A DNA stretch of 64,000 nt from a virus (taxonomy: Duplodnaviria > Caudoviricetes): IMG/VR virus record IMGVR_UViG_3300037484_000235, positions 32,001-96,000 of that record; one strand, written 5' to 3'. The notes under the pieces were generated by a model. It was given only the letters and a program-made list of their open reading frames with translations. It was not told the DNA's origin and searched no databases. The translations under genes were made by a program, and so were the position numbers. Of this stretch, positions 3,430 to 41,888 are shown piece by piece. Positions within the stretch are counted from its first letter, which is position 1; each line of letters begins with the position of its first letter.

Positions 3430-3459
3430 GACGGGTGGGTAGAGGAACATTACACGATT
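3430..3459 (-). promoter_or_regulatory. repeated promoter AATCGTGTAA-N16-CGTC
   Basis: motif read directly. Confidence 0.8.
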
Positions 3460-12321: not shown

Positions 12322-12855
12322 ATGACTGACGCCGATGACCGATCCACAAATGACGACCTGACTGATGACTACGACCCCAACGACTTAGGGGATCTCCAGT
12401 GTGGTATGATTTCATCCACAAGATCAGCGGTGTGTATTCTGAATCCTGGACATGGGGGTATGCACCGTGTCTTTTCCGTTACAACCCACAGTTTTGGACC
12501 CAGGAAGCCTATCCCATTTCCGGATCTGGAAAACATTAACCCAGGAATCCGAGAGACAGTCAGGCTCCTAAATCAGAATGGCTTCCGGACTACAGATAGT
12601 GGTGACGGAAAGACAGGTGACTATTCGTGTGACCGTCCCTACCCATACGTGTCGATTGCTTCAACCCGTGCGGGGTTGATCCAGGATGCAGACGACATCG
12701 CCTTTCTGTTCTCTGAGCACGGTGTTCAAGTCGGAGAACTCACCGAAGAGGGTGAAGGCCCCTACATCCAGGCGATGTACACCCCTCAGGTAAAAAACTG
12801 CGCAATCATCGACATTCAGAATGTCGATGACAAGCTGTTGGGGCTCGTACCCTAA
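12322..12855 (+). CDS. hypothetical protein
   Basis: 177 aa; GF.T.DSGDG motif. Confidence 0.65.
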   Translation: MTDADDRSTNDDLTDDYDPNDLGDLQCGMISSTRSAVCILNPGHGGMHRVFSVTTHSFGPRKPIPFPDLENINPGIRETVRLLNQNGFRTTDSGDGKTGDYSCDRPYPYVSIASTRAGLIQDADDIAFLFSEHGVQVGELTEEGEGPYIQAMYTPQVKNCAIIDIQNVDDKLLGLVP

Positions 12856-14459
12856 CCCTTGGTGACGTGCCCATCGTAGAAGTGGAAGAAGACCGGGACC
12901 CTCTCGATCCCCAGCTCCGCCGCAATGGCCAGTCGATGATTCCCTTCACCAACCTTGACTCCGCCTTTACGACCGATTTGGAGGTGCACGGTGCTCCCCT
13001 TCTTCCATCCTCGGCTGTTCATACTGTCCATCAGCTCGTCCCATTCATGTGGTTCCAGACGAGCCTTGTCCCGAGTCCAAACGTACTCCCTGTAGGGTAG
13101 TAGCTCAGACAGACGGACCATCACGGGCATGTCGTCCTCGTACATCTTGTCCCCGAGCTTTTGCCAGTTCGCAATCACGTCTCCCAGGCCCGTGTAGTTG
13201 GAGTAGTACCCAGCGGTACGACCACCATGTGTAACAGTGCCCAACGCCGCCCGCACGGCGTCCTGCAAACGGTCTGGTTGGAAGGCGAGCATTGGTGTGC
13301 TCAGCATCGCCTCGCGAGCTAGAGGGGCCAGTGCGCCCCGGTCTCGGCCCTGTAGGTTGAACTCTGTGATGAGGGCCGTGTTGTCGATCGGTGGCTTCTT
13401 GAGCTTCTCGAAGAACTCGTCAGCCTCATCGCTGATCATCCCCGTGGTGATTTCCCGGAGTCTGACTTGTTGAGGCTTCGTCAGGAAAGCTACGGGCTGC
13501 GACCCAAGCCCAAGGTCTGCCAGATCCAGAAGCAACGCCACCGCACGGTTCCCGTTGCTGAACTGCTTTGCCATGTACGAGGCAAACGGAGCCTCACTTT
13601 GGATCATTTCCGAGAGGGTCTCGATCAGGCCCAGGTGAGCCATTGTGAGAAGGGCCCCACGTGCATTAGGGGTGTCCAGAATGTCTTGCACCAAGATCGT
13701 GGCAATCGCCTCCCATGGCATCTTCTTCATCTTGGGGGCGTTACGCCGGACACTGGCCGCAACCTCATCGGTCAGATCAAGCTCGTACTTGATCGAGAAT
13801 TTAATCAGTCTGAGCATACGTGTTGGATCGTCGGAGAATGTTCGGTCCGGATCCAACGGTGTGTGGAGCATTCGCTCTTCGAGGTGCTGCACGCCAAGAC
13901 CCGTAAGGTCGATGACTTCTGCGTAGTCAGGTCCGTTTGCTAGGTCGAGCAGTCTCCAGAGCAGAGAATTGAGCGTGAAGTCGCGTCGATTTATATCCTC
14001 TTCGATGGTGGCTGGTTGGACATCGGTGGGCTTGTAGCCTTTTCCTTTCCCTTCGGCTCCACCGTAGGACTCTTTGCGCGCATTCGCGATTTCCAGAATT
14101 TCACCCTTCAGCGAGTGGCCCTCAAGTTCCCATTCTCCCTTAATTGTCAGTATGACAACCCCATACTGATTGGTTGTGAGATTCGTTGGGGCTGGGATAG
14201 CCTTGGCCAGTTGATTTGCAAACCACTCTGAGTTCTTGCCGAGCGCGATGGAATCTACGACGACGTCCAAATCATTGATTGGGTACTTGGATCCACCAGG
14301 GTCCATCATGAAGTTACGCACGGCCCCACCAACCACGTAAACGTGACTAGCCACACCCAATTCGATTGCTGTGCGAGACAAGAACTTCATCAGCGCCACT
14401 GAGCGTGCATGCGACCCAGCGTTGAGAAAGCGAGTTGCGACTTGAGATGCTTGATCCAT
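12852..14459 (-). CDS. cca: class II tRNA nucleotidyltransferase/poly(A) polymerase (CCA-adding type) fused to C-terminal ParB/sulfiredoxin-like domain
   Basis: VVGGAVR, DLDVVV, RKESY, EDINRRDFTLNSL, FSDDPTRMLR; C-term GEGNHRL..A..LG...VPV; no HD domain seen. Confidence 0.88.
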   Translation of the reverse strand: MDQASQVATRFLNAGSHARSVALMKFLSRTAIELGVASHVYVVGGAVRNFMMDPGGSKYPINDLDVVVDSIALGKNSEWFANQLAKAIPAPTNLTTNQYGVVILTIKGEWELEGHSLKGEILEIANARKESYGGAEGKGKGYKPTDVQPATIEEDINRRDFTLNSLLWRLLDLANGPDYAEVIDLTGLGVQHLEERMLHTPLDPDRTFSDDPTRMLRLIKFSIKYELDLTDEVAASVRRNAPKMKKMPWEAIATILVQDILDTPNARGALLTMAHLGLIETLSEMIQSEAPFASYMAKQFSNGNRAVALLLDLADLGLGSQPVAFLTKPQQVRLREITTGMISDEADEFFEKLKKPPIDNTALITEFNLQGRDRGALAPLAREAMLSTPMLAFQPDRLQDAVRAALGTVTHGGRTAGYYSNYTGLGDVIANWQKLGDKMYEDDMPVMVRLSELLPYREYVWTRDKARLEPHEWDELMDSMNSRGWKKGSTVHLQIGRKGGVKVGEGNHRLAIAAELGIERVPVFFHFYDGHVTKG

Positions 14460-14495
14460 GAGGGCTCCACCCAATGCAGAAAATAGACGGCTTCG

Positions 14496-14687
14496 CTAAG
14501 GCCGTGGCTTGGAACGACGTACGCGAGGTCTAGAAATACCAATCTGCTCGATGAGATCACTAGCCTTGCGGAATTCGCACTCCAGGCACGAGCACGTATC
14601 CCCACATCCCATACTCTTCGTTGTTGCAGCGTTTCGAAGTCGCAGCACTTCTCTTGCGGCACGGATTTTTTCTGCCAGACTCATCAT
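14496..14687 (-). CDS. hypothetical protein
   Basis: 63 aa, CGDTCSCLEC. Confidence 0.55.
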   Translation of the reverse strand: MMSLAEKIRAAREVLRLRNAATTKSMGCGDTCSCLECEFRKASDLIEQIGISRPRVRRSKPRP

Positions 14688-14926
14688 GGACCCATCCCCA
14701 CAAAGGAATTAGGCCCGTCCACAATGGCTTCGGTCTCTCTTCCTGTTGGGCTTAGCAGACGGAGACGGACACACAGTCGACCCCACCAAGGATGCTTTTC
14801 TTCCGCCGAGAGAATCTTGTAGGGCACTAGGATCATTTTGAAATCCGGTGGGTACCACTCTGGCATGTCTAGGGTCTTACCTACCACATAGCGTCTAGAT
14901 GGGGTGTCCCTGTATGGATGGGTCAT
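14684..14926 (-). CDS. hypothetical protein
   Basis: 80 aa coupled ORF. Confidence 0.55.
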   Translation of the reverse strand: MTHPYRDTPSRRYVVGKTLDMPEWYPPDFKMILVPYKILSAEEKHPWWGRLCVRLRLLSPTGRETEAIVDGPNSFVGMGP

Positions 14927-14934
14927 ACGAGGGA

Positions 14935-15261
14935 CTATTCTGGAGTGTCAATCGACCGATATTCCACAGGTCGGCCTTTGGACTCAGCACGCTCAATACC
15001 GAACCTCATCCCACGTGAGATGCCACGGTCTGTGTAGACGACCGTGGCATCCGCTTTCAATCCCCACGCAAGACCCGCTTCGATACCCCTGGTGCGCTCT
15101 TCCAGAATGAGGTCATCAAGGACGCCATCCTGTGTGTAGAGCAGGTGGCTTGCAAAGGGGGCCTCACCACGTAGAAGGGAATCTCGCATGCACCGTCGTG
15201 CATAGAGCTTGTTCGCCTCTACGTCACCTGCAAATGGACTCTCAAGGATGACGAGTCTCAT
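14935..15261 (-). CDS. conserved phage protein (deoxyribosyltransferase-like fold, uncharacterised)
   Basis: VILESPFAG, ARR, GEAPFASHLLY, GISxGM..G motifs. Confidence 0.65.
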   Translation of the reverse strand: MRLVILESPFAGDVEANKLYARRCMRDSLLRGEAPFASHLLYTQDGVLDDLILEERTRGIEAGLAWGLKADATVVYTDRGISRGMRFGIERAESKGRPVEYRSIDTPE

Positions 15262-15328
15262 GCTGCAAGTCTGTGTTCTGGGCTTGCCACAGCCAAGTAG
15301 ATACTAAGAGGGGGCGAGAATACTAGAC

Positions 15329-15868
15329 TCATTTGGAAATACCATCCTCTAGATTACGGGAAGCCGTGACGCCGACCTGATCCTGATACTTGGAACTCGT
15401 CCCATAGGGTTTTTCGGCGCTGCCTAGAAGAGCATGAAAGCTTACCTGACAGATCGAGTCCCCCTCTTGAAGCTCCACTGGCGGTCCCGCGATATCTAGC
15501 TCCAGGGTGATGTTCCCGGCAAATCCAGGGTCAATGAACCCAGCTGTGGCATGAATCCTAAGACCGACACGACCCCAGGATGAGCGGCCGTCAACTCTGC
15601 CTACAAGATCTCTGGGCATCACGATACGTTCCCGGGTCCCAATCAGATAGAGCATACCTGGTTTTAGAACCCAGGATCCAACGGGAACAAGTTCCGAGCG
15701 TCCTGGTCGCAATGCCACTCCGTAGGGCGCAGTAACCCTACATAGTGGGCCCACGATTGTCAGGTCTACAGACGCCGGTTGAACCCTCCCCTCGATCTCC
15801 AGGGCCCTGTGGTGGTCTGGAAACAGGGTTGGGAGTAACAGCTTGATCTGAGAGTCCTGAAGAATCAT
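15329..15868 (-). CDS. dcd: dCTP deaminase
   Basis: QPASVDL, GRSSWGRxGL, AGFIDPGFxGxITLEL, YQDQ. Confidence 0.9.
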   Translation of the reverse strand: MILQDSQIKLLLPTLFPDHHRALEIEGRVQPASVDLTIVGPLCRVTAPYGVALRPGRSELVPVGSWVLKPGMLYLIGTRERIVMPRDLVGRVDGRSSWGRVGLRIHATAGFIDPGFAGNITLELDIAGPPVELQEGDSICQVSFHALLGSAEKPYGTSSKYQDQVGVTASRNLEDGISK

Positions 15869-15925
15869 GTGCGTTACGATACCACCAGACTTGAGAGATT
15901 GAATGGCGGCACTGGGGCCCCTGCT

Positions 15926-16660
15926 TCAATACTCTTTTCTGGGATACCTGCCACCGTTCTCAATGGCCACGACCTGAGCCTGAGCCGCATCATACAGGCG
16001 CAGACCCTCGACGTGAGCGGGCCAGTCCCGTGCGGGGTTACACCCCTGCACTCGGTCTGCGGCACGCAGGGACTCAACTGCCATGCTTGTGCAGTCCCCT
16101 GGGCTAGGGCCATAGCGACTGACGATCTTCTGGGGGCCCCTCAGTTCAGGAGGGCAGCAGATGTAGAGATCTGCACGAGCGTAGAACTGCCTGCTTACCA
16201 CCCTGCCAATAGCATCCACACTGACCTCGGGGACAGCATCCGGCGTGTACCGTCCGAGGAACTGGCACTCTTTGCAGGTGTGTGGGTACTCCGGCACGGG
16301 CCGTGGCGTGCAGGGCGGATGACGTCGAGCGTAGTCATCGAGGATGGCATCGGCCTGCTTGGGGGTCAGGCGGGTAGGGTTGGGGCTCTCTGTGAACTCT
16401 TCGGGGGTGAACCGGAAACCGCCTGGCATCACATCGATTGTTCCAGGTGGTAAGCCCTCGATTGTGGTTGTACCACCCACCACCGGGCGCAGCTCCCCAT
16501 CTTCGGTGGCGTGAGCATAGAGCGCGTCAATGACCACATCGATTTCGGCAAGGGCCCGGACCTCTAGAGCCTCTTGAATGTCACCAGGCGGAGTAATGCG
16601 CATCGCCTCGCCATAGGCTCGAATTGCTTCCTTGAGATTACGGGCAGTCATACGATCCAC
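15926..16660 (-). CDS. hypothetical protein
   Basis: 244 aa; CxxC.FLG and DLY.C motifs as in 19720-20001. Confidence 0.6.
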   Translation of the reverse strand: MDRMTARNLKEAIRAYGEAMRITPPGDIQEALEVRALAEIDVVIDALYAHATEDGELRPVVGGTTTIEGLPPGTIDVMPGGFRFTPEEFTESPNPTRLTPKQADAILDDYARRHPPCTPRPVPEYPHTCKECQFLGRYTPDAVPEVSVDAIGRVVSRQFYARADLYICCPPELRGPQKIVSRYGPSPGDCTSMAVESLRAADRVQGCNPARDWPAHVEGLRLYDAAQAQVVAIENGGRYPRKEY

Positions 16661-16875
16661 TTACCCCTGATTTTCGAAGCGTGGAGTACGCATCGACGCT
16701 CGCCTGGATTCTTGCCCACCTCGTAAATTGCGAATCGAACCACCGCGTGAGTGTGGATGATGTTCGAGAGTTCGTGTAACGCGTCCACGATGGTGTCCGC
16801 GTCTCTACTGGCGTCCCCCTGATTTTTCATGGTCCATACGACCTCGAAGTGATCCTTCTTACGGGCGGTAGTCAT
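16648..16875 (-). CDS. hypothetical protein
   Basis: 75 aa in operon. Confidence 0.6.
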   Translation of the reverse strand: MTTARKKDHFEVVWTMKNQGDASRDADTIVDALHELSNIIHTHAVVRFAIYEVGKNPGERRCVLHASKIRGKWIV

Positions 16876-17206
16876 GTGTGATCTTCCCCTTTCTCAGGCG
16901 TTCGGTGAGGGCCCCTGCGATGAGGGCCTGGCGGATGGTCTTCCCCACTTCGGCCTCGATGGTGTCCCGCTCACCTCGGGATACCAGGAAGTCCTTGGTC
17001 CATCGGCCTCGGCCAGTGCGATATTCGAAGCGGACTAGAAACAATCCATCAGCCTTAGAGGGTGCGACTCGCAGACGTCGCCACTCACCTGAGGTAGGTG
17101 AGGGCTCCGGATTGTCTCGCAAGGTCTCTCGCACGCGGTTGAGTCCCCAGACCAGAAAGACCAGGACTAGCCAGCCCGTGACTGCGATGAAGAAAAAGAC
17201 CGTCAT
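16859..17206 (-). CDS. hypothetical protein with N-terminal TM anchor
   Basis: hydrophobic first 22 aa. Confidence 0.6.
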   Translation of the reverse strand: MTVFFFIAVTGWLVLVFLVWGLNRVRETLRDNPEPSPTSGEWRRLRVAPSKADGLFLVRFEYRTGRGRWTKDFLVSRGERDTIEAEVGKTIRQALIAGALTERLRKGKITHDYRP

Positions 17207-17218
17207 GCTTTGACCTGC

Positions 17219-17410
17219 TTATTTCACGTTTTCAAGCTGAGCGACAAGCGCCATGACGTCTTCTAGAACACTGGCTGCTACAAGAGAACGATTCACGTAT
17301 GGGTTCGCATGAGGAACCCCACTAAGATGCTCCTCATCGCAAGCATCTGCGATTTTCATGAGCCGTTCACGTTCGACGAGCAATTTCTTGATCAAGTCAG
17401 ACTTGGTCAC
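17219..17410 (-). CDS. hypothetical protein
   Basis: 63 aa coupled. Confidence 0.6.
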   Translation of the reverse strand: MTKSDLIKKLLVERERLMKIADACDEEHLSGVPHANPYVNRSLVAASVLEDVMALVAQLENVK

Positions 17411-17634
17411 ACGTCCTCGACTCGGATTACGACCCGCACGATGCGCACGAGGGGGCCCAGAGGGTGTCCACTCAGAGCCTTTTCGGCCTCTGCCAGATTT
17501 GAGAATCGGTAGGAATCCACTGCGTCATCAATCCACTGATGTGGACGTGAGTCCCCCTCTGGATTGATGAAGGAGGCATTGAGATAGCCCCTCTCGTAGA
17601 GACGCAGGGTGTACCACACCCACTGAGTGGTCAT
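17407..17634 (-). CDS. hypothetical protein
   Basis: 75 aa coupled. Confidence 0.6.
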   Translation of the reverse strand: MTTQWVWYTLRLYERGYLNASFINPEGDSRPHQWIDDAVDSYRFSNLAEAEKALSGHPLGPLVRIVRVVIRVEDV

Positions 17635-17870
17635 TTGAGATTGGCCTCATGATCTCGCTTGAGCAGGATCATGATCTTCGAGCGGGCCTCACGGAAGGCA
17701 ACAGACTCCCCCTTGGCCTCACCCCAGTTGAAGAGCATGGTCTCCCGGGCAGGGCCCTTCGCTCGCTTGGCAGCCAGTTCAAACCCGGTAGCTGCCTTGA
17801 GGTTGTGCTCCGCCTCATCCAGTAGCTCGTTGGCGATGGCCTCCAGCTTCATTCGTGTGCTCAGGTCCAT
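17631..17870 (-). CDS. hypothetical helical protein
   Basis: start MDLSTRM. Confidence 0.6.
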   Translation of the reverse strand: MDLSTRMKLEAIANELLDEAEHNLKAATGFELAAKRAKGPARETMLFNWGEAKGESVAFREARSKIMILLKRDHEANLK

Positions 17871-17877
17871 TAGCGTG

Positions 17878-18063
17878 TTACTCCCTTGCCTGGGGTGTGG
17901 GATAGACACATCGGCATTCTACAGGGGCCGGACTCATCTTTGGATCCAAGGAGAGCTTGATCATGGCCACCGCAATCGCGAAGAGGGAGATGGAAATGAG
18001 AAAGAGGAAGAAGAAAACGGTGCTCGAATCCTCGATTGCCACCGTCTTGGGTGTGGTCAGCAT
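17878..18063 (-). CDS. small single-TM membrane protein
   Basis: MLTTPK...VFFFLFLISISLFAIAVAMI. Confidence 0.55.
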   Translation of the reverse strand: MLTTPKTVAIEDSSTVFFFLFLISISLFAIAVAMIKLSLDPKMSPAPVECRCVYPTPQARE

Positions 18064-18284
18064 GGTGCGATCTCTCGCCGGAAATACACACCATGCCGAT
18101 TGAGAGGTGTGTACGGCTTGTCCAACACTGGACGGTTGTCGACGGGCTTGGGGGCCTTCGAAGCCTTGTCCAACTTCACAACGTAGAGCATCGCCCCACG
18201 GTCGATGGGATGAATAGTGGAAATCACGGTCCCCGTCCCTCGTGGTGTACTCACAGTGGAACCAATCGATAGTCGTGTCTTCAT
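18057..18284 (-). CDS. hypothetical (SH3-like beta) protein
   Basis: IGSTVSTPRGTGTV pattern. Confidence 0.5.
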   Translation of the reverse strand: MKTRLSIGSTVSTPRGTGTVISTIHPIDRGAMLYVVKLDKASKAPKPVDNRPVLDKPYTPLNRHGVYFRREIAPC

Positions 18285-18613
18285 GGGGTCTCTCCGCAGG
18301 CCGGGCAGTTGTCTCGAAACTCCAGGAGGTCACCACAGTGCGAGCACACGGGCTCTACAGGCGGCACGAAGCCCTGGCAGGCTGCGATGAGTCCCACGGC
18401 CTCTACGACGCGTATAACGCTTCCCAGGCGCAGTACGACGTACGTGCGGACGTTGGACAGGTGTCCCGCCACGATGACGATGGCATCGCCTTCGTCGAAC
18501 ACCCAGGCTTGGGTTTCAGCCCAAGAGCCTGTGCGGGGGTCTCGGTAGCGCACATCTCGTGTAGCTGAGGAAATCTCAGAGTGCTTGACCAGTCGGAGAT
18601 TGGTAGGTGTCAT
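18281..18613 (-). CDS. hypothetical protein with C-terminal Zn ribbon
   Basis: CSHCG...CPACG. Confidence 0.6.
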   Translation of the reverse strand: MTPTNLRLVKHSEISSATRDVRYRDPRTGSWAETQAWVFDEGDAIVIVAGHLSNVRTYVVLRLGSVIRVVEAVGLIAACQGFVPPVEPVCSHCGDLLEFRDNCPACGETP

Positions 18614-18840
18614 GACGTGCTCTTGCAGTACTCTCCGACCGACATGCCTGCACGGATTGCGGCACGGGCCGTTGCCGCCACAAGCTCGAACCACAGCTTG
18701 CGCACAATGCGGGCCTCGTGGTCTGCCTGGTCCGCTACACGACTCGCCTCACACTCAGGACAGGTGGTGAAGTTGTGCGATGCGCCGACTACAGCTACAT
18801 GCGCCAGTGAGGGATTCGGCGTGATGACAGGGGTGTTCAT
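18610..18840 (-). CDS. hypothetical protein
   Basis: first ORF after promoter 18858-18887. Confidence 0.7.
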   Translation of the reverse strand: MNTPVITPNPSLAHVAVVGASHNFTTCPECEASRVADQADHEARIVRKLWFELVAATARAAIRAGMSVGEYCKSTS

Positions 18841-18857
18841 GATGTCCTCACCTGTGT

Positions 18858-18887
18858 AACTGGCGAGACTCAGCCGATTACACGATT
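18858..18887 (-). promoter_or_regulatory. repeated promoter AATCGTGTAA-N16-AGTT
   Basis: motif read directly. Confidence 0.75.
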
Positions 18888-19090
18888 CAACGGGCCTTCT
18901 TTTGGAGGCAGTCCCTCAGCCGGGCATCCGCTTCCAGGTAGGCAGCAAAGGCCGCCCCCACGTCCTTGAGGAGAGGTTGAATCTCCGGATCCTCGGGAGT
19001 CACGGAGGCAGCCAGGAAATCAGGACGTACCGCATCCGAAAGGAAAAGAGCACTGAAGTGGGGGGTATCCATGGTGTTAGGGCGGGTCAT
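18887..19090 (-). CDS. hypothetical protein
   Basis: start MTRPNT, ATGA overlap. Confidence 0.6.
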   Translation of the reverse strand: MTRPNTMDTPHFSALFLSDAVRPDFLAASVTPEDPEIQPLLKDVGAAFAAYLEADARLRDCLQKKAR

Positions 19091-19269
19091 GCGCAGGGCT
19101 CTACTCGTGCAGTGAAGGACCGTCCGAGGCGTACCAGGGCGTTCTCTGCGCCTCGCAGCGTGCGGTAGACTCGTGCGGAGTACCCGCCGGGCCCGATGAG
19201 GTGTGTCCACTCCCCTGTGGTAGCGAGCACCAGTGCTGGATTCACCGTGGAGCGCAGGATGTAGATCAC
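19087..19269 (-). CDS. hypothetical protein
   Basis: GTG start VIYILRS. Confidence 0.55.
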   Translation of the reverse strand: MIYILRSTVNPALVLATTGEWTHLIGPGGYSARVYRTLRGAENALVRLGRSFTARVEPCA

Positions 19270-19273
19270 TTGC

Positions 19274-19390
19274 TTACCAGAACTTTGCGATGAAGTGATA
19301 GAGGACCATGGCAATAGTGCTGAAGACTGCCACAGCGACTACGATGGACAGAAGCTCCACCAGTGTGAATCCGGAGTTTCGCTTGATCAT
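19274..19390 (-). CDS. 38-aa prepilin-like peptide (type IV pilin N-terminus only; not in ORF track)
   Basis: MIKRNSG-FTLVELLSIVVAVAVFSTIAMVLYHFIAKFW; basic leader, G/F site, E5, hydrophobic helix; promoter and RBS upstream. Confidence 0.8.
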   Translation of the reverse strand: MIKRNSGFTLVELLSIVVAVAVFSTIAMVLYHFIAKFW

Positions 19391-19416
19391 TGGATGTGTG
19401 TTCCTCTCACCTAAGT

Positions 19417-19446
19417 AACGAGTGGGGCCTTGTGGATTACACGATT
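19417..19446 (-). promoter_or_regulatory. repeated promoter AATCGTGTAA-N16-CGTT (extra upstream box at 19469-19478)
   Basis: motif read directly. Confidence 0.85.
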
Positions 19447-19477
19447 TCGGAGGATTTCGCGCAGTGGATTACACGAT

Positions 19478-19711
19478 TCAGTGACGGCAGAGATTGGCAA
19501 GCCTCAGGATTGCGGCCTGAAGGTCAAGTCCATGCCCCTGGCCATCTGCCTCCTCGTTTCGCGCTACTACAAAACCCCCGCGTCCAGCTACGAATCCACC
19601 AGTATGGTATGCGATCATAGGGAGGGTACGAGAGGCCGACACGTCGATGTCCTCGATGGCCTTGAGCAAGGCCAGGGCATTCTTGATTCTTTCCGCAGTG
19701 GGCTTGGTCAT
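19478..19711 (-). CDS. hypothetical protein
   Basis: 77 aa. Confidence 0.55.
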   Translation of the reverse strand: MTKPTAERIKNALALLKAIEDIDVSASRTLPMIAYHTGGFVAGRGGFVVARNEEADGQGHGLDLQAAILRLANLCRH

Positions 19712-19719
19712 GGGTATCC

Positions 19720-20001
19720 TCAGGTCCCGGAGAGACCGGCGTCCTTCGCAATCAGGTAGGCAACTCGTAGTGCTCGGTTGGAGGCGTCCATGTGGTCGGC
19801 ACGGGTGTCCTGGGTGAGGCTCTTCGCGAAGACCATCCCAGAGACGTAGTCGGGACCGTCTGAGCTGTGCCGGGCGATGACCGTGCTGCCGGTAGCTTGC
19901 TTGCAGTGGTAGAGGTCATGCTTCTCGTACGTTCCGAGGAACGTGCAGACTTCGCAGTCGTGATCGAACTTGGGGTTCCCCGTGTCAGGTAGCTTTTTCA
20001 T
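19720..20001 (-). CDS. hypothetical protein
   Basis: start MKKLPDT; HDCEVCTFLG..DLYHC. Confidence 0.6.
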   Translation of the reverse strand: MKKLPDTGNPKFDHDCEVCTFLGTYEKHDLYHCKQATGSTVIARHSSDGPDYVSGMVFAKSLTQDTRADHMDASNRALRVAYLIAKDAGLSGT

Positions 20002-20123
20002 GGCACCCCCATGACTTTCTGGAGAGCAAGAATGACGACCTCTACCAGCATCACGACCAGGATGAAGCCGAGCACCATCCCGAATCCGATCTCTATCTTG
20101 AGCATCAGCGTCTTGATTTTCAT
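19998..20123 (-). CDS. 41-aa single-TM peptide
   Basis: MKIKTLMLKIEIGFGMVLGFILVVMLVEVVILALQKVMGVP; coupled at both ends. Confidence 0.55.
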   Translation of the reverse strand: MKIKTLMLKIEIGFGMVLGFILVVMLVEVVILALQKVMGVP

Positions 20124-20410
20124 GCCGTCTCCGAGTGTCGTGCGAACCAGTCCTTGAGCCAGAGCCACCGACCCGCATTGGCATGGGTCGAGGCCGCCTG
20201 CTTGGCTTCCTTGCGGCTGTTGAACGTGCCGTTTTGGAGGACCCCATCGATCCGAAGTCTCCACTTGCGAGTGTAGCCCGTCTCGACGCCCCACGTAGTC
20301 TCAATGAGGTAGGGGCCGCAGACTCGGGCATCACCGTCTTCGACCGAGACGACAGGGATGCGCTCCCAGACGAGCTTGGGGTACGAGCGAACGGCTGGGA
20401 TGGTGGTCAT
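20120..20410 (-). CDS. hypothetical protein
   Basis: first ORF after promoter. Confidence 0.7.
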   Translation of the reverse strand: MTTIPAVRSYPKLVWERIPVVSVEDGDARVCGPYLIETTWGVETGYTRKWRLRIDGVLQNGTFNSRKEAKQAASTHANAGRWLWLKDWFARHSETA

Positions 20411-20430
20411 GGTGGTTCTCTCACCTGTAT

Positions 20431-20460
20431 AACGGGCGAGTGGACCGGGATTACACGATT
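20431..20460 (-). promoter_or_regulatory. repeated promoter AATCGTGTAA-N16-CGTT
   Basis: motif read directly. Confidence 0.85.
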
Positions 20461-20511
20461 TCGGTCACTCCGTGTCTTCCGGCCAGGGATTGATCTGAAT
20501 TCCACGCACCC

Positions 20512-21051
20512 TCACTGAAATACAACCCCGCCGTGATCCCCAGCGTTGATGAGGGATACCTCCCACTTCTCGCACCACCGAAGGAACGCATCCCCGTGGC
20601 TATATGGGACCAAGCCAATCGAACTTGTGGCTTCTCCCATAGGCAGGGCGTTGGCGTAGCTGCGGATGACCCCAGCATGCTCTGCGAAGTCACGGGCAAG
20701 ACTCACGCAGTGGTCTCCACCAATCACACCCTCGCAGTCAGACATGGCAATCAGCCAGCCGAATGCCCGTTCGAAGACACTCGGGTCCGTCCATGTGAGA
20801 TGGTTGAACGCTGTGCAATCCATGCCGTGGATTGCCTGGGTAAGATGATCTCTCATCCTGGAATGACCCATGTAGGAGATGCTCGCGCCAGGCCAACGTT
20901 TCTCGGCCGTATAGAGCCCCGTCACCAAGCCCCCAGCGTTGCGGACGAAGTTGGGGTTGACGTAGACCCATACCTGGCCGTCGACTTCATTGAAGTGGTC
21001 AGTTGCCCGAGCCAACTGGAGTCCGCTGTACACCGTTGTGTCTAGTCCCAT
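20512..21051 (-). CDS. hypothetical protein
   Basis: 179 aa; SDCEG.IG motif. Confidence 0.65.
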   Translation of the reverse strand: MGLDTTVYSGLQLARATDHFNEVDGQVWVYVNPNFVRNAGGLVTGLYTAEKRWPGASISYMGHSRMRDHLTQAIHGMDCTAFNHLTWTDPSVFERAFGWLIAMSDCEGVIGGDHCVSLARDFAEHAGVIRSYANALPMGEATSSIGLVPYSHGDAFLRWCEKWEVSLINAGDHGGVVFQ

Positions 21052-21062
21052 GACGTGTTCTC

Positions 21063-21311
21063 TTACTCGATTTCGATTTTGGTGCGCTTGGCATCGTAAG
21101 CATATGCCGCCTGTGTGATCGCCAAGTTACCTACGGAGCACGCGACTCGCAGGTCATCAGCTGCCTTGAGGGCGTCAAAGACTGCATCCAGGTCATTGTA
21201 GACATTGAACTCCCTACGCTGGGCCTGTGCCTTCTGTTTGATGGTGCGTCCAACCGACTCCGTGGCGAAGTACTTACGGATGATGGCTCGAAACTGATTG
21301 TGTGTTGTCAT
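21063..21311 (-). CDS. hypothetical protein
   Basis: 82 aa. Confidence 0.6.
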   Translation of the reverse strand: MTTHNQFRAIIRKYFATESVGRTIKQKAQAQRREFNVYNDLDAVFDALKAADDLRVACSVGNLAITQAAYAYDAKRTKIEIE

Positions 21312-21365
21312 GCGATGCGCTCGTTGGTGGTCCCAGGCTTGATGAGACCATGAGGACTACACGAT

Positions 21366-21815
21366 TCACCAGAGATCTTCCGAGTAGAGAATCTTTCCGA
21401 TGGGGTAGCCTGGGTCTCTCAAAGGCTGCTTTGCGGCCTTGGCAAGCTTAGCCGCTACCCCACGCGTCACATACCGCCCGTGACTTGTTACGAAGCCCTG
21501 GCTCCTGCCCTGAACATTGAGAGAGTGCAGCCCCAAATGGAACAGTCGCTGCCGCATGATTGTGTCGTGTCGACCGGGGCGTCTAATGCTCCAAATCTCC
21601 CCATCGATACGCATGGCCGCTTGAAAGACAGTCTCTACTTCCCCAGGAAGCACGGGGTGCTCAAGCATTTCCCCCACGGGTGTGCGGCTCAAGAGCAGGG
21701 TGCGACCGCATCCCGCACAGGCGCCGCAGTAGCCATGGTCTACAGCCGGGCCCGTGTTGCCCGTGCCCGAACAGTGCAGGCAGGGGATGCCATAGGTCTT
21801 CAGGTAGGGGTTCAC
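21366..21815 (-). CDS. conserved phage protein (QGF.TS.GR...SEDLW family) with N-terminal Cys-rich repeat
   Basis: CLHCSGTG..CGACAGCG; RPGRHD; QGFVTSHGRYV; LYSEDLW. Confidence 0.65.
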   Translation of the reverse strand: MNPYLKTYGIPCLHCSGTGNTGPAVDHGYCGACAGCGRTLLLSRTPVGEMLEHPVLPGEVETVFQAAMRIDGEIWSIRRPGRHDTIMRQRLFHLGLHSLNVQGRSQGFVTSHGRYVTRGVAAKLAKAAKQPLRDPGYPIGKILYSEDLW

Positions 21816-22135
21816 AGCATAGCCTCTATCACCAGGGCCCTGAGATCCACCTTGGAGAAACCATTGGGGGCAACGACGTATACACCCTCAGGGGTCTCCA
21901 GCAGGTCACCCACCGAAGTCGAGCGCGGGCTCTGGAGGGTCAGCATCTTCACACCGTCCGCCTTGGACCAATCCGAATCAATGTGCTGGCTGGCCTTGAA
22001 GGCATCTCCAAGAGATGGAACCTCCAGAACGGCCACCGCATCGAAGTTCACGAGAGGCGCGACCTCACCGCACGAGACAGCCCAGCGAACGTTCCTACTC
22101 GCATCCGACCGAAGGTGAAAGACTGTGACTCGCAT
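21812..22135 (-). CDS. YodL-like domain protein
   Basis: RSTSVGDLL....YVVAPNGF motif. Confidence 0.55.
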   Translation of the reverse strand: MRVTVFHLRSDASRNVRWAVSCGEVAPLVNFDAVAVLEVPSLGDAFKASQHIDSDWSKADGVKMLTLQSPRSTSVGDLLETPEGVYVVAPNGFSKVDLRALVIEAML

Positions 22136-22154
22136 GTGTGTTCCTCACCGGTGT

Positions 22155-22184
22155 AACGCTTGGCCTACCATCGATTACACGATT
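22155..22184 (-). promoter_or_regulatory. repeated promoter AATCGTGTAA-N16-CGTT
   Basis: motif read directly. Confidence 0.85.
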
Positions 22185-22193
22185 GCGTGTACG

Positions 22194-22511
22194 TCACTTA
22201 CACCTGATGATGGAGACTTTCACCAGACGGCCGAATGACGCACGCTGCGTACGTGCAATCGAGCGGGCGAGGTCCATCCGCTGCCTTCGCTTCTCGCGGA
22301 AGATGAGGCGCCAGGGCTTGTCGATGATGAGTTTGTTGATCTCCTCCTGGACGCGCTGCTCCCGCTCGGCATCGGTCATCAGGTCGGACCACATCGCCAC
22401 CGACGCTCGCCGGATTGCCGTGATGCGGCAATGCAGTTCCACATCACGGCTCTGCTCCGCCCTCTTGAGTTGACGCGCCCACCGACGGCGCTTCTTCGAC
22501 GCAATGCTCAC
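22194..22511 (-). CDS. hypothetical basic protein
   Basis: 105 aa coupled. Confidence 0.55.
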   Translation of the reverse strand: MSIASKKRRRWARQLKRAEQSRDVELHCRITAIRRASVAMWSDLMTDAEREQRVQEEINKLIIDKPWRLIFREKRRQRMDLARSIARTQRASFGRLVKVSIIRCK

Positions 22512-23248
22512 AGACAGGGGTCCCCGCAGTTAGCACAGCCCCCATTGATACCGCGTCGTTCGTTGTTGCAGCACGCCGCATCGGGCTTGTTCGGGTCGTT
22601 CTGAGCGTCAAGGGCTTCTTGCCCCGTCAGACGCGGGTTGTACTCGTTGTACACCTGACGGTACGTACCATCCGCCTGTAGAACGTACCCGTCGGACTCC
22701 AGATCTGCATGCAGCAGATCACGGTCCTGCTTGCGCATCGCAAGCACATAGGGGTGGGTGTCCATATTGCGGCGAAGCCACCCCTCATGGTGCTCCCCCG
22801 CCCCAAGTCGTCCCTCCCCACTCCCGTGCCGCCCTGCAAAGAAGCTGAGGGCCCGGCGCAGCATCTTCTCCTGGTCTGCCAGGAACGAGAGGGCGTCATC
22901 CCGGGTCTGACCCCGCACAGGACACACAGCCATGCGTGCTGCATCCACCACGGCCCACAGCTGCTCCCAGACCTCCGGGTGACAGTCTGGACGCTCTGGC
23001 CCCGCACCGGCCTTCACCTTCCCGTAGGTGGCAAGGGAGGGACCGTCGCCGTTCGTGAGATCACCAAGCCGTGCAAGGAGCGCGGCCTTCGCCGTGGCAG
23101 CTCGCTCCACCTTCTCCGCAGGGGTGAGTGCCCGGTGCCGCCAGCACTTGCCGTCGTACTTGCCAGGCAGCTTGCACCCGTCGGAGATGGTGCCTCGCCC
23201 CACATGCTCCATGCAGTCGGGAACAGTCTTCTTCTTGGTCTTAGTCAT
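22508..23248 (-). CDS. hypothetical protein
   Basis: 246 aa, Cys motifs at both ends; first after promoter. Confidence 0.7.
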   Translation of the reverse strand: MTKTKKKTVPDCMEHVGRGTISDGCKLPGKYDGKCWRHRALTPAEKVERAATAKAALLARLGDLTNGDGPSLATYGKVKAGAGPERPDCHPEVWEQLWAVVDAARMAVCPVRGQTRDDALSFLADQEKMLRRALSFFAGRHGSGEGRLGAGEHHEGWLRRNMDTHPYVLAMRKQDRDLLHADLESDGYVLQADGTYRQVYNEYNPRLTGQEALDAQNDPNKPDAACCNNERRGINGGCANCGDPCL

Positions 23249-23267
23249 GTATCTTCCTCACCAGTGT

Positions 23268-23297
23268 AACGGGCGGGACTCAGCCGATTACACGATT
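23268..23297 (-). promoter_or_regulatory. repeated promoter AATCGTGTAA-N16-CGTT
   Basis: 28/30 identical to 18858-18887. Confidence 0.85.
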
Positions 23298-23311
23298 GCC
23301 CTAGGTCGTAT

Positions 23312-23536
23312 TCATCGACCCCTTGCTGACACACCATTGAGCAGATCGGCTGCTTCACGGAGTGATTCCGCATGGTGGTAGTTTGAGTTCTCGTCACGAT
23401 CCGCTTGGTTCAGGAGGCGTTCCTGTGCAGCAAACACACCCATCTGCCACGCTTCGTGGAGAGCGCGACGGAACTCGCGCTTTGTCTTCGGTAGCGTCGC
23501 TAGTGCGTCGCCGTACTTGGGTAGCGGCTTGGTCAT
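23312..23536 (-). CDS. hypothetical protein
   Basis: 74 aa after promoter. Confidence 0.65.
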   Translation of the reverse strand: MTKPLPKYGDALATLPKTKREFRRALHEAWQMGVFAAQERLLNQADRDENSNYHHAESLREAADLLNGVSARGR

Positions 23537-23555
23537 GGGTTTTCCTCACCAAGGT

Positions 23556-23585
23556 AACGGATGGCCTTTTGCGAAGTACACGATT
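23556..23585 (-). promoter_or_regulatory. promoter variant AATCGTGTAC-N16-CGTT
   Basis: motif read directly. Confidence 0.75.
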
Positions 23586-23587
23586 CC

Positions 23588-24367
23588 TCAGGCTGTGCTC
23601 TTCTCGATGAAGAGCACGCAGGTGTTGACGAGGGTGCCGCTCTCCCGGAATGACCCAGGGTGCAAGTCGGTGATTGTGCCCCCCGCCTCACTCACCCAAG
23701 TACGGAACTCCGCATGCCGCCGATCCTGACGGAAGAGAACGCTAGAGGGCAGGACACACACGAGGATGCCACCTACCTTGAGGAGTCGGTACGCGAGCCG
23801 AGCGTGGTCAAGATGATCATTCAGGTTGATCTTGCAGAACGGGGGGTTCATCACCACACGATCGAACTCAGGCGTGAATACGCTGCCCCCAAATCCCATT
23901 TCCATGAAGTCATCGATCGGAGACACATCACATACGTCAGGGAATGTCTTGACGAGGTGGTGCCGCATCTTCTGATCGCGCTCAATGGCCCACACCTTCC
24001 CGGCGCCAGCTGCGATCAACGCACGTACGATGTTTCCAGTTCCAGCACTGGGCTCTAGACAGATGTGTCCAGATTCAACTCCTGCCATGCCCACCAGTTC
24101 GATTGCTAGCTGAGGCGGTGTAGGGAAAAACCCGATGTCCTTGTGCGTCGTGACCTCACCCATGAGGATGGCTTGATCAATGCGTTCTGCCGCATCCCCA
24201 TCAAAGACGTGGGCCTTGGCCTTGCGTTCCCACTTGCCACCTAGGGCTGTGAGCACTTCGTTCACCTTGGTGTAGAGTTTGCGGTCTAGTTGATCAACAA
24301 TGACCGCTTGATTTCCTACGCACTTGACGGTCGACAGGACGATCTGGACTTCGGGAGAGATCTTCAT
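23588..24367 (-). CDS. SAM-dependent (N6-adenine-type) DNA methyltransferase, orphan
   Basis: FFPTP, LEPSAGTG, VVMNPPF, FRESGT. Confidence 0.85.
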   Translation of the reverse strand: MKISPEVQIVLSTVKCVGNQAVIVDQLDRKLYTKVNEVLTALGGKWERKAKAHVFDGDAAERIDQAILMGEVTTHKDIGFFPTPPQLAIELVGMAGVESGHICLEPSAGTGNIVRALIAAGAGKVWAIERDQKMRHHLVKTFPDVCDVSPIDDFMEMGFGGSVFTPEFDRVVMNPPFCKINLNDHLDHARLAYRLLKVGGILVCVLPSSVLFRQDRRHAEFRTWVSEAGGTITDLHPGSFRESGTLVNTCVLFIEKSTA

Positions 24368-24739
24368 TTAGCTGCGTGCTCCAGGATACCGTATGTTGTA
24401 CTTCGTCATGAACTTCGCACGGGACTCTTTGGCTTCCTTTTCGAAGGTCTCCGCTAGTTTTCGAAGAAGGAAGGCCTCATCGGTCTTGCCGTCTGCGAAC
24501 GACTTCCCAGATAGCTCACGGAATCGGGGCCAGAAGTCTTCTTGCATAGAGACCTGGCCCAGTTCGAAGTTCTTAGTCCTCAGGGTTTCGAGAGGGTCCC
24601 CCTCAGACTCATCGCCTAGATCCCCGTTGAGAGCGTTGTTGTGAAAGCCAATCGGACACACGAAATTGACGCAGTGTTCGTAGCTCTGTTCCTCGCACAC
24701 CAAACACTTGGAACTCTTTCCGTCTTTTGCTTTGCTCAC
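24368..24739 (-). CDS. hypothetical protein
   Basis: GTG start overlapping upstream stop. Confidence 0.55.
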   Translation of the reverse strand: MSKAKDGKSSKCLVCEEQSYEHCVNFVCPIGFHNNALNGDLGDESEGDPLETLRTKNFELGQVSMQEDFWPRFRELSGKSFADGKTDEAFLLRKLAETFEKEAKESRAKFMTKYNIRYPGARS

Positions 24740-24999
24740 GTTGGTACCTCTTCCAGGGGCCATGAAATTGCAGGCCAGTAGGCAACGACTCCCTTGCCCA
24801 TATTGTCAGTAGTCGGGCGGAACCCAACCACTGAGGTAAGTTCGCCGGCCTCCACGTTGCTGTGCACGCGGACTGATACACAGAGCCCACCATGCATACC
24901 ACGACCAGAGTAGGGCTCAGGCTCGTATCCTGCGGTATCGAGTGCCACGATGACGGCTTCCAAATCGGAAGCGCGTCCCACATAAAAACGCCTGGTCAT
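24736..24999 (-). CDS. hypothetical protein
   Basis: YSGRGM.G..C motif, common in phage ORFs. Confidence 0.65.
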   Translation of the reverse strand: MTRRFYVGRASDLEAVIVALDTAGYEPEPYSGRGMHGGLCVSVRVHSNVEAGELTSVVGFRPTTDNMGKGVVAYWPAISWPLEEVPT

Positions 25000-25196
25000 C
25001 TGTAGCCTCTGTCGGATAGCTCTTTTCGTACGGACTTCACGGCCTTTAGCCGTGTCTTGTAGGTCTCTTTAGGGACTTCTCGTGTTCCGTCTTCTGTTTC
25101 CGTAAGCCACTCGTATTGACCACAGAGAGACTCTTCCAGGTATGCCTCTAGGCGTCGAAGAACGAAGCGACGTGCTTCTTGGTACTCAGTGCTCAC
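24996..25196 (-). CDS. hypothetical protein
   Basis: 66 aa coupled. Confidence 0.6.
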   Translation of the reverse strand: MSTEYQEARRFVLRRLEAYLEESLCGQYEWLTETEDGTREVPKETYKTRLKAVKSVRKELSDRGYR

Positions 25197-25612
25197 CTGG
25201 TTACCGTTGATTCAGGCGGCGTTGTTTTCCAAGTGTCTCCAGTTGAAAGGTCGGCAATCTTGACCAGATCGGTGGATCGAGCAATGATTCTCTCAAGTGC
25301 AGCTCGCGGGTCATTAGTGTGACCATCTCGGATGTTCATGGCGTCCATCTTGATGCTCTGGGCGCACGAGATGACCTGCATCATGGGAGTATCCTGCTTG
25401 AACACAGGTCCCTCTTCCGGCAGGTCCATCCACTTCTCCCAGTGGACTTCAAGTGCTCGTAGCAGGTGCTGACCCGCCCCGTTCCGCAGTAGAATAGCGA
25501 TTCGAGAGGAGAGGGGGAGTTGCTCCATCCACCGAGTCTTGTCTTCTCTGGTGAGCATGTGCTCGACCAGTTCGATGCTGTGGTGTCCGAAGCCCTTCTT
25601 ATTGGTGGTCAT
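25193..25612 (-). CDS. hypothetical protein
   Basis: start MTTNKKG. Confidence 0.6.
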   Translation of the reverse strand: MTTNKKGFGHHSIELVEHMLTREDKTRWMEQLPLSSRIAILLRNGAGQHLLRALEVHWEKWMDLPEEGPVFKQDTPMMQVISCAQSIKMDAMNIRDGHTNDPRAALERIIARSTDLVKIADLSTGDTWKTTPPESTVTR

Positions 25613-25929
25613 GACGATTTGAATCTGAGTGTGATGGGATCCGTGATCGAGTCCCACTGGTCGTCCAGCCTGTTGAGAAGGGCGCACCGAAGGCACTTAC
25701 GATCTCTCTGACGATTGGTGTCCGTGCACCGGTAGTCGTGCTGCACAATTCCCAGGATGGTCTTAGGATTCTCCAGGAAGAGCACGAGGAAGGCACTCTG
25801 GGCGGCAGCCTCCTTGGCTTCAAGCGCAAGGCGCTCCGCCTTCTCCCGAGCCTCACGATCATCGTTGCGGCGCTTGGCCTCAGCGAAGATCTCCACGTCG
25901 GTGAACTTCTTGATGTCAGCCACGGTCAT
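25609..25929 (-). CDS. hypothetical protein
   Basis: start MTVADIK. Confidence 0.6.
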   Translation of the reverse strand: MTVADIKKFTDVEIFAEAKRRNDDREAREKAERLALEAKEAAAQSAFLVLFLENPKTILGIVQHDYRCTDTNRQRDRKCLRCALLNRLDDQWDSITDPITLRFKSS

Positions 25930-26203
25930 TGATCTCCCTCTGGGCAGTGGACAGCTCGACCGCAGATTCCAGCGCCAACACAGCCTCATCATGCAGGTAC
26001 CTGGGCATCACGCCGAGTCCCTCTTCCACGATCAGCTCCAGGGCTTCCTGCATCTTCAGCATGCGTTCGCGCTCTTGCTTGGTCATCATGGGGGTGTCCA
26101 GTACTTCGGTTGGCCACTCAATGGACGTCGCTGTGCAATCTGCCTTGGGGCCAATCTTGCGTGGTACTCGGAGCGTCTTCGTCCTGGGCTTCTTTTCGGT
26201 CAT
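25916..26203 (-). CDS. hypothetical protein
   Basis: 95 aa. Confidence 0.6.
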   Translation of the reverse strand: MTEKKPRTKTLRVPRKIGPKADCTATSIEWPTEVLDTPMMTKQERERMLKMQEALELIVEEGLGVMPRYLHDEAVLALESAVELSTAQREINDRG

Positions 26204-26906: not shown

Positions 26907-26936
26907 AACGGGTCAGCCCCCAGGGATTACACGATT
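26907..26936 (-). promoter_or_regulatory. repeated promoter AATCGTGTAA-N16-CGTT
   Basis: motif read directly. Confidence 0.85.
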
Positions 26937-28428: not shown

Positions 28429-28458
28429 AACGGTTGAGCCCACCAGGATTACACGATT
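28429..28458 (-). promoter_or_regulatory. repeated promoter AATCGTGTAA-N16-CGTT (no ATG follows)
   Basis: motif read directly. Confidence 0.85.
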
Positions 28459-28964: not shown

Positions 28965-28994
28965 AACGGTCGGGGACCAGAGGATTACATGATT
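28965..28994 (-). promoter_or_regulatory. promoter variant AATCATGTAA-N16-CGTT
   Basis: motif read directly. Confidence 0.8.
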
Positions 28995-29728: not shown

Positions 29729-29758
29729 AACGGGTGAGGGCCAGACGATTACACGACG
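29729..29758 (-). promoter_or_regulatory. repeated promoter with 11-bp tandem duplication of the upstream box (second box 29760-29769)
   Basis: ACGATTACACG-ACGATTACACG-ATT on +. Confidence 0.8.
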
Positions 29759-29768
29759 ATTACACGAT

Positions 29769-30554
29769 TCATCGGCGAGGATACTGCGGGCGAGGGATCT
29801 TCCCACCCCCAGCAAGCAGGTCCATGGGCACCTCTGTGCCGAACTTGCTTCCACCAGTGATCCGCACGAATCCCGGAGGTAGACCCGGATCTCGGTGCAC
29901 CCGGCCAAGGGCCTGTGTCACATCCCCCAGAGGCATTCCAGGAGTCCGACGCACCGTGGACTTGTCCGACGGACGTACCGGGCGCTCCTCATTGCGGATG
30001 ATGGTCTTCGTGACCCCGGCCCGCATCGCAGCCTCAAGCTGGTCCATGACGGCCATGCGCCCCGCTCGGGACTGAGGTGGTGTAGGCGCAATCTCAGGCA
30101 CCTTGCAGCGGCCACAACACGGGCCGAGGTGCTCGTCTTCTGCTGCATTGCACTCAGGCTCCGCAGGTTGGCCAAAAGGGAGTGCTTCCAGTTCGTGCCG
30201 GGCGATGCGGCGGCCCACGATGTTGACCTGGCGCAGGTCAGTGGCAATAGCCGTGAGAGCGAGTACAAGAGGGTGAGTCTCCCCGTCGAAGTGCTCCACG
30301 TAGCGGCTGCGTTCGACCTTGAGACGTCCAAGAGCAATCTTCTTGCCCTTCTCACGATCGAACACCTCACCTGGGATGAGATACGTGAAGAACGTGTCTG
30401 GCAGGGGCCCAGGCTCAGTTACCCAGTGCGGGGGCTTGTTGACGGAGTACGCGATGTAGAGCGACGAGCCCTTGATTTGAGTCACGAGGGTCATGACTCG
30501 GTCTGGATTGCGCAGGTCTTGGATGTATCGAATCTTGGTATTTGGAGTAGTCAT
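29769..30554 (-). CDS. hypothetical protein
   Basis: start MTTPNTK; two-part ORF. Confidence 0.6.
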   Translation of the reverse strand: MTTPNTKIRYIQDLRNPDRVMTLVTQIKGSSLYIAYSVNKPPHWVTEPGPLPDTFFTYLIPGEVFDREKGKKIALGRLKVERSRYVEHFDGETHPLVLALTAIATDLRQVNIVGRRIARHELEALPFGQPAEPECNAAEDEHLGPCCGRCKVPEIAPTPPQSRAGRMAVMDQLEAAMRAGVTKTIIRNEERPVRPSDKSTVRRTPGMPLGDVTQALGRVHRDPGLPPGFVRITGGSKFGTEVPMDLLAGGGKIPRPQYPRR

Positions 30555-33127: not shown

Positions 33128-33158
33128 AACGGGTGACCCACCCATAGATTACACGATC
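33128..33158 (-). promoter_or_regulatory. repeated promoter GATCGTGTAA-N17-CGTT
   Basis: motif read directly. Confidence 0.75.
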
Positions 33159-36743: not shown

Positions 36744-36797
36744 TTGAGGACTAGATTGAGCGGCAGCCAATCACTGATTGATTCCTTACGCTTTCCA

Positions 36798-36949: not shown

Positions 36950-36969
36950 GGGTGTGTAAGAAGGAGAAG

Positions 36970-41859: not shown

Positions 41860-41888
41860 ACCTTACACCCGGCGTAACGTACAACGTG

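Follow-up and report, generated by a model that had tools for sequence, protein, structure and literature searches.

The window, i.e. the whole 64,000-nucleotide stretch of DNA that was analysed, corresponds to bases 32001-96000 of the 252.5-kb IMG/VR record IMGVR_UViG_3300037484_000235 (Caudoviricetes), a phage record whose completeness CheckV estimates at 57%. It has a GC content of ∼57% and carries a large-phage gene set with GroEL, thymidylate synthase and a VWA + AAA_5 (CobT/CobS-like) pair, as well as a CCA-adding-type nucleotidyltransferase. The genes of the pair are divergent, with the AAA_5 (CobS/MoxR-like) ATPase at 35556-36770 on the minus strand and the 696-aa VWA (CobT-like) protein at 36952-39042 on the plus strand; the phage GroEL gene lies downstream of them at 41805-43466. 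Elsewhere in the window, a 259-aa protein (23588-24367, minus strand) matches internal segments of very large phage proteins (phrog_9133 and phrog_15406) that are annotated as DNA methyltransferases; one module of these proteins apparently exists here as a separate protein.

The original prediction placed a stand-alone prepilin peptide of 38 amino acids at positions 19274-19390. An ORF is present at exactly these coordinates, on the minus strand, and its translation is the one originally given (Table 1); the plus-strand frame of the same interval was rejected as a gene because its translation is unrelated and meaningless. The gene, referred to here as the micro-prepilin, has a GC3 of 0.69, equal to that of bona fide genes of the window, and a GC2 of 0.31, as expected for a membrane helix. 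It is present in a single copy in the phage record; no other N_methyl match was found in the 252.5 kb and no peptidase A24 gene in this 57% complete record. A megablast search with the 12-kb stretch around the ORF (14000-26000) returned no cultured-phage match. Among the neighboring proteins, a search for relatives of one of 179 aa found none, and another of 149 aa matched two distant loci only, at 35-38% identity, which is uninformative for related phages. No RNA runs containing the locus were found, and the DNA matches, from groundwater, freshwater, soil and wetland samples, were all partial.

Table 1. Positions, within the window, of the micro-prepilin gene, its peptide elements and cistrons, and the copies of the promoter/SD module.
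Feature	Position	Strand	Remarks
Micro-prepilin gene, 38 codons	19274..19390	-	ATG 19390-19388, TAA 19276-19274
Leader M1-G7, basic, 7 residues	within 19274..19390	-	
Predicted PilD site G7/F8	G7 19372-19370, F8 19369-19367	-	
Glu5 of the mature form	19357-19355	-	
C-terminal H-F-I-A-K-F-W	19277..19297	-	stop codon directly after
Shine-Dalgarno region AGGTGAGAGGAA	19401..19412	-	10 nt before ATG; part of the conserved module
Downstream promoter box CGTTAC, -10-like	19415..19420	-	fixed 14-bp spacing from upstream box
Upstream promoter box AATCGTGTAATC, perfect match	19435..19446	-	
Second, tandem perfect upstream box	19467..19478	-	without CGTTAC partner at the right distance
Second cistron, ∼60 aa, GTG start	19087..19266	-	begins 4 nt past the micro-prepilin stop
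Third cistron, ∼67 aa	18887..19090	-	ATG overlaps preceding TGA (ATGA coupling)
12-mer copies, ≤1 mismatch (1/2)	3448-3459, 18876-18887, 19435-19446, 19467-19478, 20449-20460, 21355-21366, 22173-22184, 23286-23297	-	
12-mer copies, ≤1 mismatch (2/2)	26925-26936, 28447-28458, 28983-28994, 29758-29769, 33147-33158, 50433-50444, 52448-52459	-	
Full-module sites, 2 mismatches in the 12-mer	1148, 7772, 23559, 60465	-	position of the CGTTA box
Full-module site, 2 mismatches in the 12-mer	60541	+	position of the CGTTA box

The region upstream of the gene contains a sequence module that recurs in the phage genome. Its 12-mer, AATCGTGTAATC, occurs 13 times in the window at ≤2 mismatches, against 0.11 occurrences expected. 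Genome-wide, 27 full sites combine the 12-mer (≤2 mismatches) with a CGTTA(C) box placed 13-15 bp (mostly 14) after it and a Shine-Dalgarno (SD) sequence of the type AGGTGAGGA, usually followed by a start codon on the same strand. Nearly all of these sites directly precede small genes in the same orientation, and the layout of the module reads AATCGTGTAATC, 14 bp, CGTTAC, 2-3 nt, GGTGAGGA, about 6-12 nt, ATG. Two sites, at 28447 and 60465, are followed by no obvious ORF. The four-element unit is, judged by this recurrence, a bipartite phage-specific promoter/SD module. Its spacing and CGT-containing -10-like box recall, we infer, promoters of alternative or ECF-type sigma factors, and the module suggests that the phage may encode, or redirect, a sigma factor or an RNA polymerase for its use.

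The micro-prepilin is the predicted first member of three coupled small genes. The tandem upstream box abuts the stop of the preceding gene (19478-19711), and the micro-prepilin ORF exactly occupies the gap up to the next coupled cistron. This second cistron, with a GC3 of 0.70, has no Pfam or PHROG match, and the third ends at the start of the next promoter box (18876-18887). The original claim that the peptide is expressed first from its own promoter is thus supported at the level of the sequence by a perfect copy of the 27-copy phage motif directly upstream, from which the micro-prepilin would be transcribed.

In the translation, positions -1, +1, +2 and +5 are occupied by Gly, Phe, Thr and Glu, respectively; a hydrophobic run comes next, and the predicted mature peptide has 31 aa. 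The NCBIfam model TIGR02532 (IV_pilin_GFxxxE) recognizes a class III signal with 17.0 bits against a cut-off of 16.3, and the Pfam model PF07963 (N_methyl) falls narrowly below its own (20.5 bits against 21.2, E = 3.3e-4). PHROG pilin families aligned over their N-terminal 24-30 positions only, and a look-up in the ESM Atlas returned generic N_methyl fragments only, with scores ≤0.80. A strict prepilin regular expression that includes the hydrophobic tail hit a single site of the 252.5-kb genome, as two overlapping matches, but no site in 60 genomes simulated with a second-order Markov model. AlphaFold2, run with 101 family sequences, modeled one uninterrupted helix over residues 10-37 with a mean pLDDT of 90.5; the alpha1-C segment and globular head of type IV pilins are absent from both the translation and the model. 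A prepilin signal lacking a globular head, as originally proposed, is borne out by the TIGR02532 score and the single modeled helix. The gene is genuine and, as translated, would encode a prepilin signal and an alpha1-N helix only.

Homology searches provide the strongest evidence that the peptide is real. Lack of conservation had been named beforehand as what would speak against it, and tblastn, pattern, phmmer and profile searches all found homologues. A tblastn search of GenBank phages gave a full-length match in the T5-like Aeromonas phage vB_AdhS_TS3 (Demerecviridae), where a 37-codon ORF (OP820700.1 7483-7596; L007:1504-1617, plus strand) sits in an unannotated gap between two hypothetical genes; it shares the leader, reads G|FTLIEL at the cleavage site and likewise ends in HFIAKFW-stop. 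With P0008 and P0006 as queries, tblastn matched nothing in the phage collection, although TS3 has a close copy, probably on account of the low-complexity filter. A pattern built from the back-translated tail and stop recovered 11 further loci in IMG/VR, whose contigs measure 5-210 kb with a GC content of 36-62%; their ORFs have 34-55 codons and, without exception, good ribosome-binding sites. When the window ORF alone was compared with 1.84e9 proteins in an exhaustive phmmer search, three other proteins only were returned (E 3-5e-4), all of them 36-38 aa long and combining a prepilin signal with HFI[A/S]KFW. A word-index search, which needs shared 5-mers, was run with the ORF extended by two in-frame upstream codons and returned only the ORF itself. 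A profile made from 14 members then yielded 153 clusters (90% identity) at E ≤0.01, nearly all of 36-45 aa. Source annotations of these matches name a prepilin-domain protein, PilE, PulG, PulJ or FimT, and many carry PF07963.

The family is defined by a length of 36-45 aa, a single transmembrane (TM) helix and the extreme C-terminus H-F-I-[A/S]-K-F-W, and the window ORF fits this definition. Among 120 listed family proteins, the C-terminus is HFIAKFW in 88 and HFISKFW in 17, an invariance that is partly ascertainment, as the pattern scan and the 5-mer word index favor the exact tail; the index-free phmmer search recovered the same architecture despite this bias. The motif G-[F/Y]-T-x-x-E is present in 98 of the 120. 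About 15-18% of members keep helix and tail but lack the G|F...E5 signal; this is the case for 22 of the 120 proteins listed and for 4 of the 11 loci from IMG/VR, and one such signal-less member (P0107) was seen on 23 contigs. Every degenerate codon position of the tail, and the stop codon across all three types, varies among loci. Selection therefore acts on the peptide, and this codon pattern points to purifying selection. The original prediction of a stand-alone gene is thus supported, and the gene is conserved.

Several relatives end early. A 31-codon stub (P0106; L033:3001-3096, plus strand), and likewise P0103 and P0112, has the same leader and helix and ends in ...IYVATH-stop, exactly where HFIAKFW would start. 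A hidden frameshift to FIAKFW was considered for these ...YVATH relatives and rejected, as no FIAKFW follows downstream in any frame; the stub is, as it reads, a natural tail-less variant. The string HFIAKFW is absent from the 8.4 million papers and preprints searched, and no published description of the family was found under phage-encoded truncated pilins or pilin-like proteins in jumbo phages. The HFIAKFW family is apparently undescribed so far.

The N-terminal part of the family resembles type IV pilins. Leaders are mostly of 5-7 residues, and the mature length is quantized, with 34 residues in 78 of 103 members and 31 residues, as in the window ORF, in 19 of 103. In the 34-residue class, F/Y1 is conserved at 96%, T2 at 100%, E5 at 94% and L6 at 80%; across the family measurements, T2 stands at 99-100% and E5 at 93-94%. 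Gly is enriched at mature positions 20/21 and, in the 34-residue class, position 24 is aromatic in 87% of members, the same places as P22 and Y24 of T4a pilins. Among solved pilins, MshA (E 8.5e-6), geopilin (2.8e-5) and PilA (2.9e-4) align with the family profile over the leader and the initial ∼20 residues. These PDB matches end at profile position 25-26 of 40, so the HFIAKFW tail is without a pilin counterpart, which would speak against a pilin reading. Type IV pilins and T2SS pseudopilins thus share with the micro-prepilin the leader, G-1, F1, T2, E5 and the first ∼20 hydrophobic residues, whereas the micro-prepilin lacks alpha1-C and a globular domain, ends at mature residue 31 and has a family-specific C-terminal third. 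To our knowledge, the shortest well-known pilin is Geobacter PilA-N, with 61 residues.

Within the TM helix, conservation has a period of 85-95 degrees, i.e. one conserved face, which suggests helix-helix packing. The C-terminus of the family reads V-A-x-H-F-I-[A/S]-K-F-W. Retention of the buried Glu at 94% argues for pilin-type interactions over mere anchoring. Together with the near-universal G-1/F1/T2, this residue argues for recognition of most members by prepilin peptidase and for pilin-type contacts. The invariant interfacial tail, the conserved face and the fixed length suggest, in turn, that the peptide has a specific partner and meets it at the inner membrane, on the periplasmic leaflet. 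The tail, which the original prediction missed, is the defining feature of the family and ∼15-18% of members lack the signal; the effector determinant is thus probably the tail and helix, not the signal alone.

Genomic context ties the family to phages. Its carriers are unrelated: jumbo phages, T5-like Aeromonas phages and a Paraburkholderia prophage. In Paraburkholderia sp. BR10872, the member lies in the prophage early operon between the S24 repressor and the ERF, YqaJ and SSB genes. The copies of TS3 and of ∼114-kb T5-like contigs belong to a cluster of small genes that runs rightward, ∼3.4 kb from the leftward pre-early genes dmp, A1 and A2; this position corresponds to the T5 first-step-transfer region, and the gene is a candidate for the pre-early class. 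In phage contigs of 353 kb and 497 kb, members occur within arrays of small ORFans. These contexts support a placement in phage early or host-takeover-type regions. No cellular type IV pilus (T4P) or type II secretion (T2SS) locus lies beside any family member inspected, all contexts being phage or prophage, and the tail pattern occurs in 4 of 185,579 species genomes, with a true member in one only. The HFIAKFW family is phage-restricted and almost absent from cellular genomes. The sole true member among these genomes (L024:434-601, plus strand) is on a 106-kb contig binned as Candidatus Uhrbacteria, which may be a phage contig mis-binned into a MAG.

An all-against-all comparison of the neighbors at 16 loci revealed no family-wide partner gene; neighbors are common only within related phage groups. 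A CCA-adding/PolyA_pol-type enzyme is encoded a few kb from the micro-prepilin both in the window (12852-14474, minus strand) and on the 497-kb contig (L027:10599-11678, plus strand), which may mean that these jumbo phages are distantly related, or that their early regions are composed alike. The 497-kb contig additionally encodes Thg1, NAD kinase and Lar.

The leader had also been read as a weak hint at a myxobacterial or deltaproteobacterial host, and this does not hold, as the leader is the consensus of the family and of T4a/T2SS proteins in general. NCBIfam models of the E. coli PpdD type (E 6e-4), Myxococcus PilA (4e-3), ComGE and GspJ match about equally, and the family profile matches Vibrio-type MshA best.

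The original suggestion that the peptide jams T4P/T2SS or titrates PilD stays a hypothesis. The explanation that we favor, and to which we give roughly even chances, is that PilD processes the peptide into a headless pilin, which then acts at the inner membrane as a poison of T4P/T2SS assembly. The peptide would insert into the inner membrane with its N-terminus inside and its C-terminus outside, and host PilD would cleave it and probably N-methylate it. The resulting 31-residue headless pilin would mix with the pilins available to the T4P/T2SS assembly platform and could, through its conserved helix face and its aromatic/basic tail at the periplasmic membrane interface, bind a conserved component of the machine; by analogy with the pair formed by the 30-aa PfsE and PilC, the likeliest target would be the platform protein or the alignment subcomplex. 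Such binding would stall or poison filament assembly. The pay-off for the phage would be that pilus-dependent rival phages are excluded from the infected or lysogenized cell and that pilus and secretion functions are shut down.

Some of the evidence sits uneasily with this explanation. Because ∼15-18% of members lack G|F...E5 and keep helix and tail, processing by PilD would seem dispensable for the tail's role. We know of no T5-like phage that uses pili as receptors, so that in these carriers the benefit would have to be against other phages. A complex prediction of Aeromonas hydrophila TapD (LEP4_AERHY) with the family member P0006 scored 0.01 and is evidence neither way.

Other readings were weighed against the same data. 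An ORF with only 38 codons and a Pfam N_methyl score just below cut-off might be suspected of being open by chance, or of being a 5' leader of the following gene that is not translated. Such an origin is contradicted by more than 150 homologous clusters of like length with synonymous codon drift and all three stops, by the perfect promoter/SD module upstream, by the absence of regular-expression matches in the 60 simulated genomes and by gene callers that had already called the ORF (P0002); conservation refutes it, and we assign it practically no probability. It is also conceivable, if improbable, that the peptide blocks PilD itself as a substrate mimic or tight-binding product, the helix occupying the substrate groove and the tail clamping a conserved periplasmic face, so that T4P, T2SS and competence pili would be starved of mature subunits. 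The peptide does contain a canonical PilD recognition site. The strong conservation of PilD from host to host would account for a tail that stays invariant while phage GC ranges over 36-62%, and signal-less members could still serve as pure groove binders. However, E5 is conserved at 93-94% although pilin genetics shows that it is not required for PilD cleavage, and the active site of PilD is at the cytoplasmic face, far from the tail.

A small membrane effector unrelated to pili, which we consider rather unlikely but take more seriously than a PilD block, would use its TM helix and HFIAKFW against another conserved inner-membrane function: the DNA-entry route (exclusion of the T4 Imm/HK97 gp15 type), the divisome (Kil type), or envelope or lipid carriers. 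The class III signal would then be a mere insertion or maturation device that removes the charged leader. Consistent with this, the invariant part of the peptide is the tail, which has no homology to pilins and persists in the members without G[F/Y]TxxE (4/11 IMG/VR loci, 22/120 listed), and the prophage copy occupies the usual place of lambdoid kil- and sie-type genes. On the other hand, G-1, F/Y1, T2 and E5 are found in ∼82% of listed members and at 93-100% within the signal-bearing class, far more conservation than membrane insertion would require; positions 20-24 are similar to the hinge and Y24 of pilins; and known phage peptides of the same size and topology with a proven target (PfsE) act on T4P.

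Assembly poisoning by a headless pilin can also be framed more generally, and this we put forward as a tentative possibility: pan-phage, host-activated "poison subunits" that PilD trims to headless pilins of 31 or 34 residues and that polymerize into and break, or else lock, all class-III machines, or whose tail hits a universal inner-membrane target after PilD arming. Machines that depend on a class III signal, and that might equally tentatively be counted here, are T4P, T2SS and competence pili. If this poison-subunit reading is true in either form, no smaller functional pilin-like module than the micro-prepilin would be known, and jumbo, T5-like and temperate phages would share a general device for takeover or exclusion. 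If it is true that the peptide blocks PilD-dependent machines, pili and type II secretion could be inhibited by a minimal peptide, and one group of early genes of large phages that count as "ORFans" would be accounted for. As both TS3 and its host are cultured, the function of the family is directly testable.

Interference of phage proteins with type IV pili is known from only a few cases, all in Pseudomonas. PfsE of Pf4 is a 30-aa single-pass inner-membrane peptide with its N-terminus inside and a conserved aromatic cluster (Schmidt et al., mBio 2022, PMC8764522). PfsE attaches to the platform protein PilC, blocks T4P for a time and keeps pilus-dependent phages out, and it needs the aromatic cluster for all three (PMC8764522). 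PfsE would be the best functional analogue of the micro-prepilin, a likeness that is functional only and for which no homology is claimed: unlike the micro-prepilin, PfsE has no class III signal, carries its motif, YxWGW, in mid-helix and occurs in Pf phages only.

A single mention of truncated phage pilins in print comes from a study that describes, in virulent phages, a phage FimU and a truncated "P-PilA" of ∼60 N-terminal residues, the latter in six Pseudomonas phages (Sztanko et al., Cell Rep 2026, PMC12952977). P-FimU is a full minor pilin and was shown to be incorporated in the pilus, and the roles proposed, for superinfection exclusion, are incorporation without receptor sites or inhibition of T4P assembly (PMC12952977). 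P-PilA and P-FimU resemble the micro-prepilin in that a pilin N-terminus is phage-encoded, in that non-temperate phages are included and in the roles proposed. Compared by description only, P-PilA has ∼60 aa, against 31 mature residues ending in HFIAKFW-COOH for the micro-prepilin. That study makes no mention of an HFIAKFW tail. The HFIAKFW family spans many phage types and GC contents. The family is invisible to standard annotation, as exemplified by the unannotated TS3 copy, and is sharply delimited, with more than 150 clusters of headless prepilins of 31 or 34 residues across virulent, jumbo and temperate phages.
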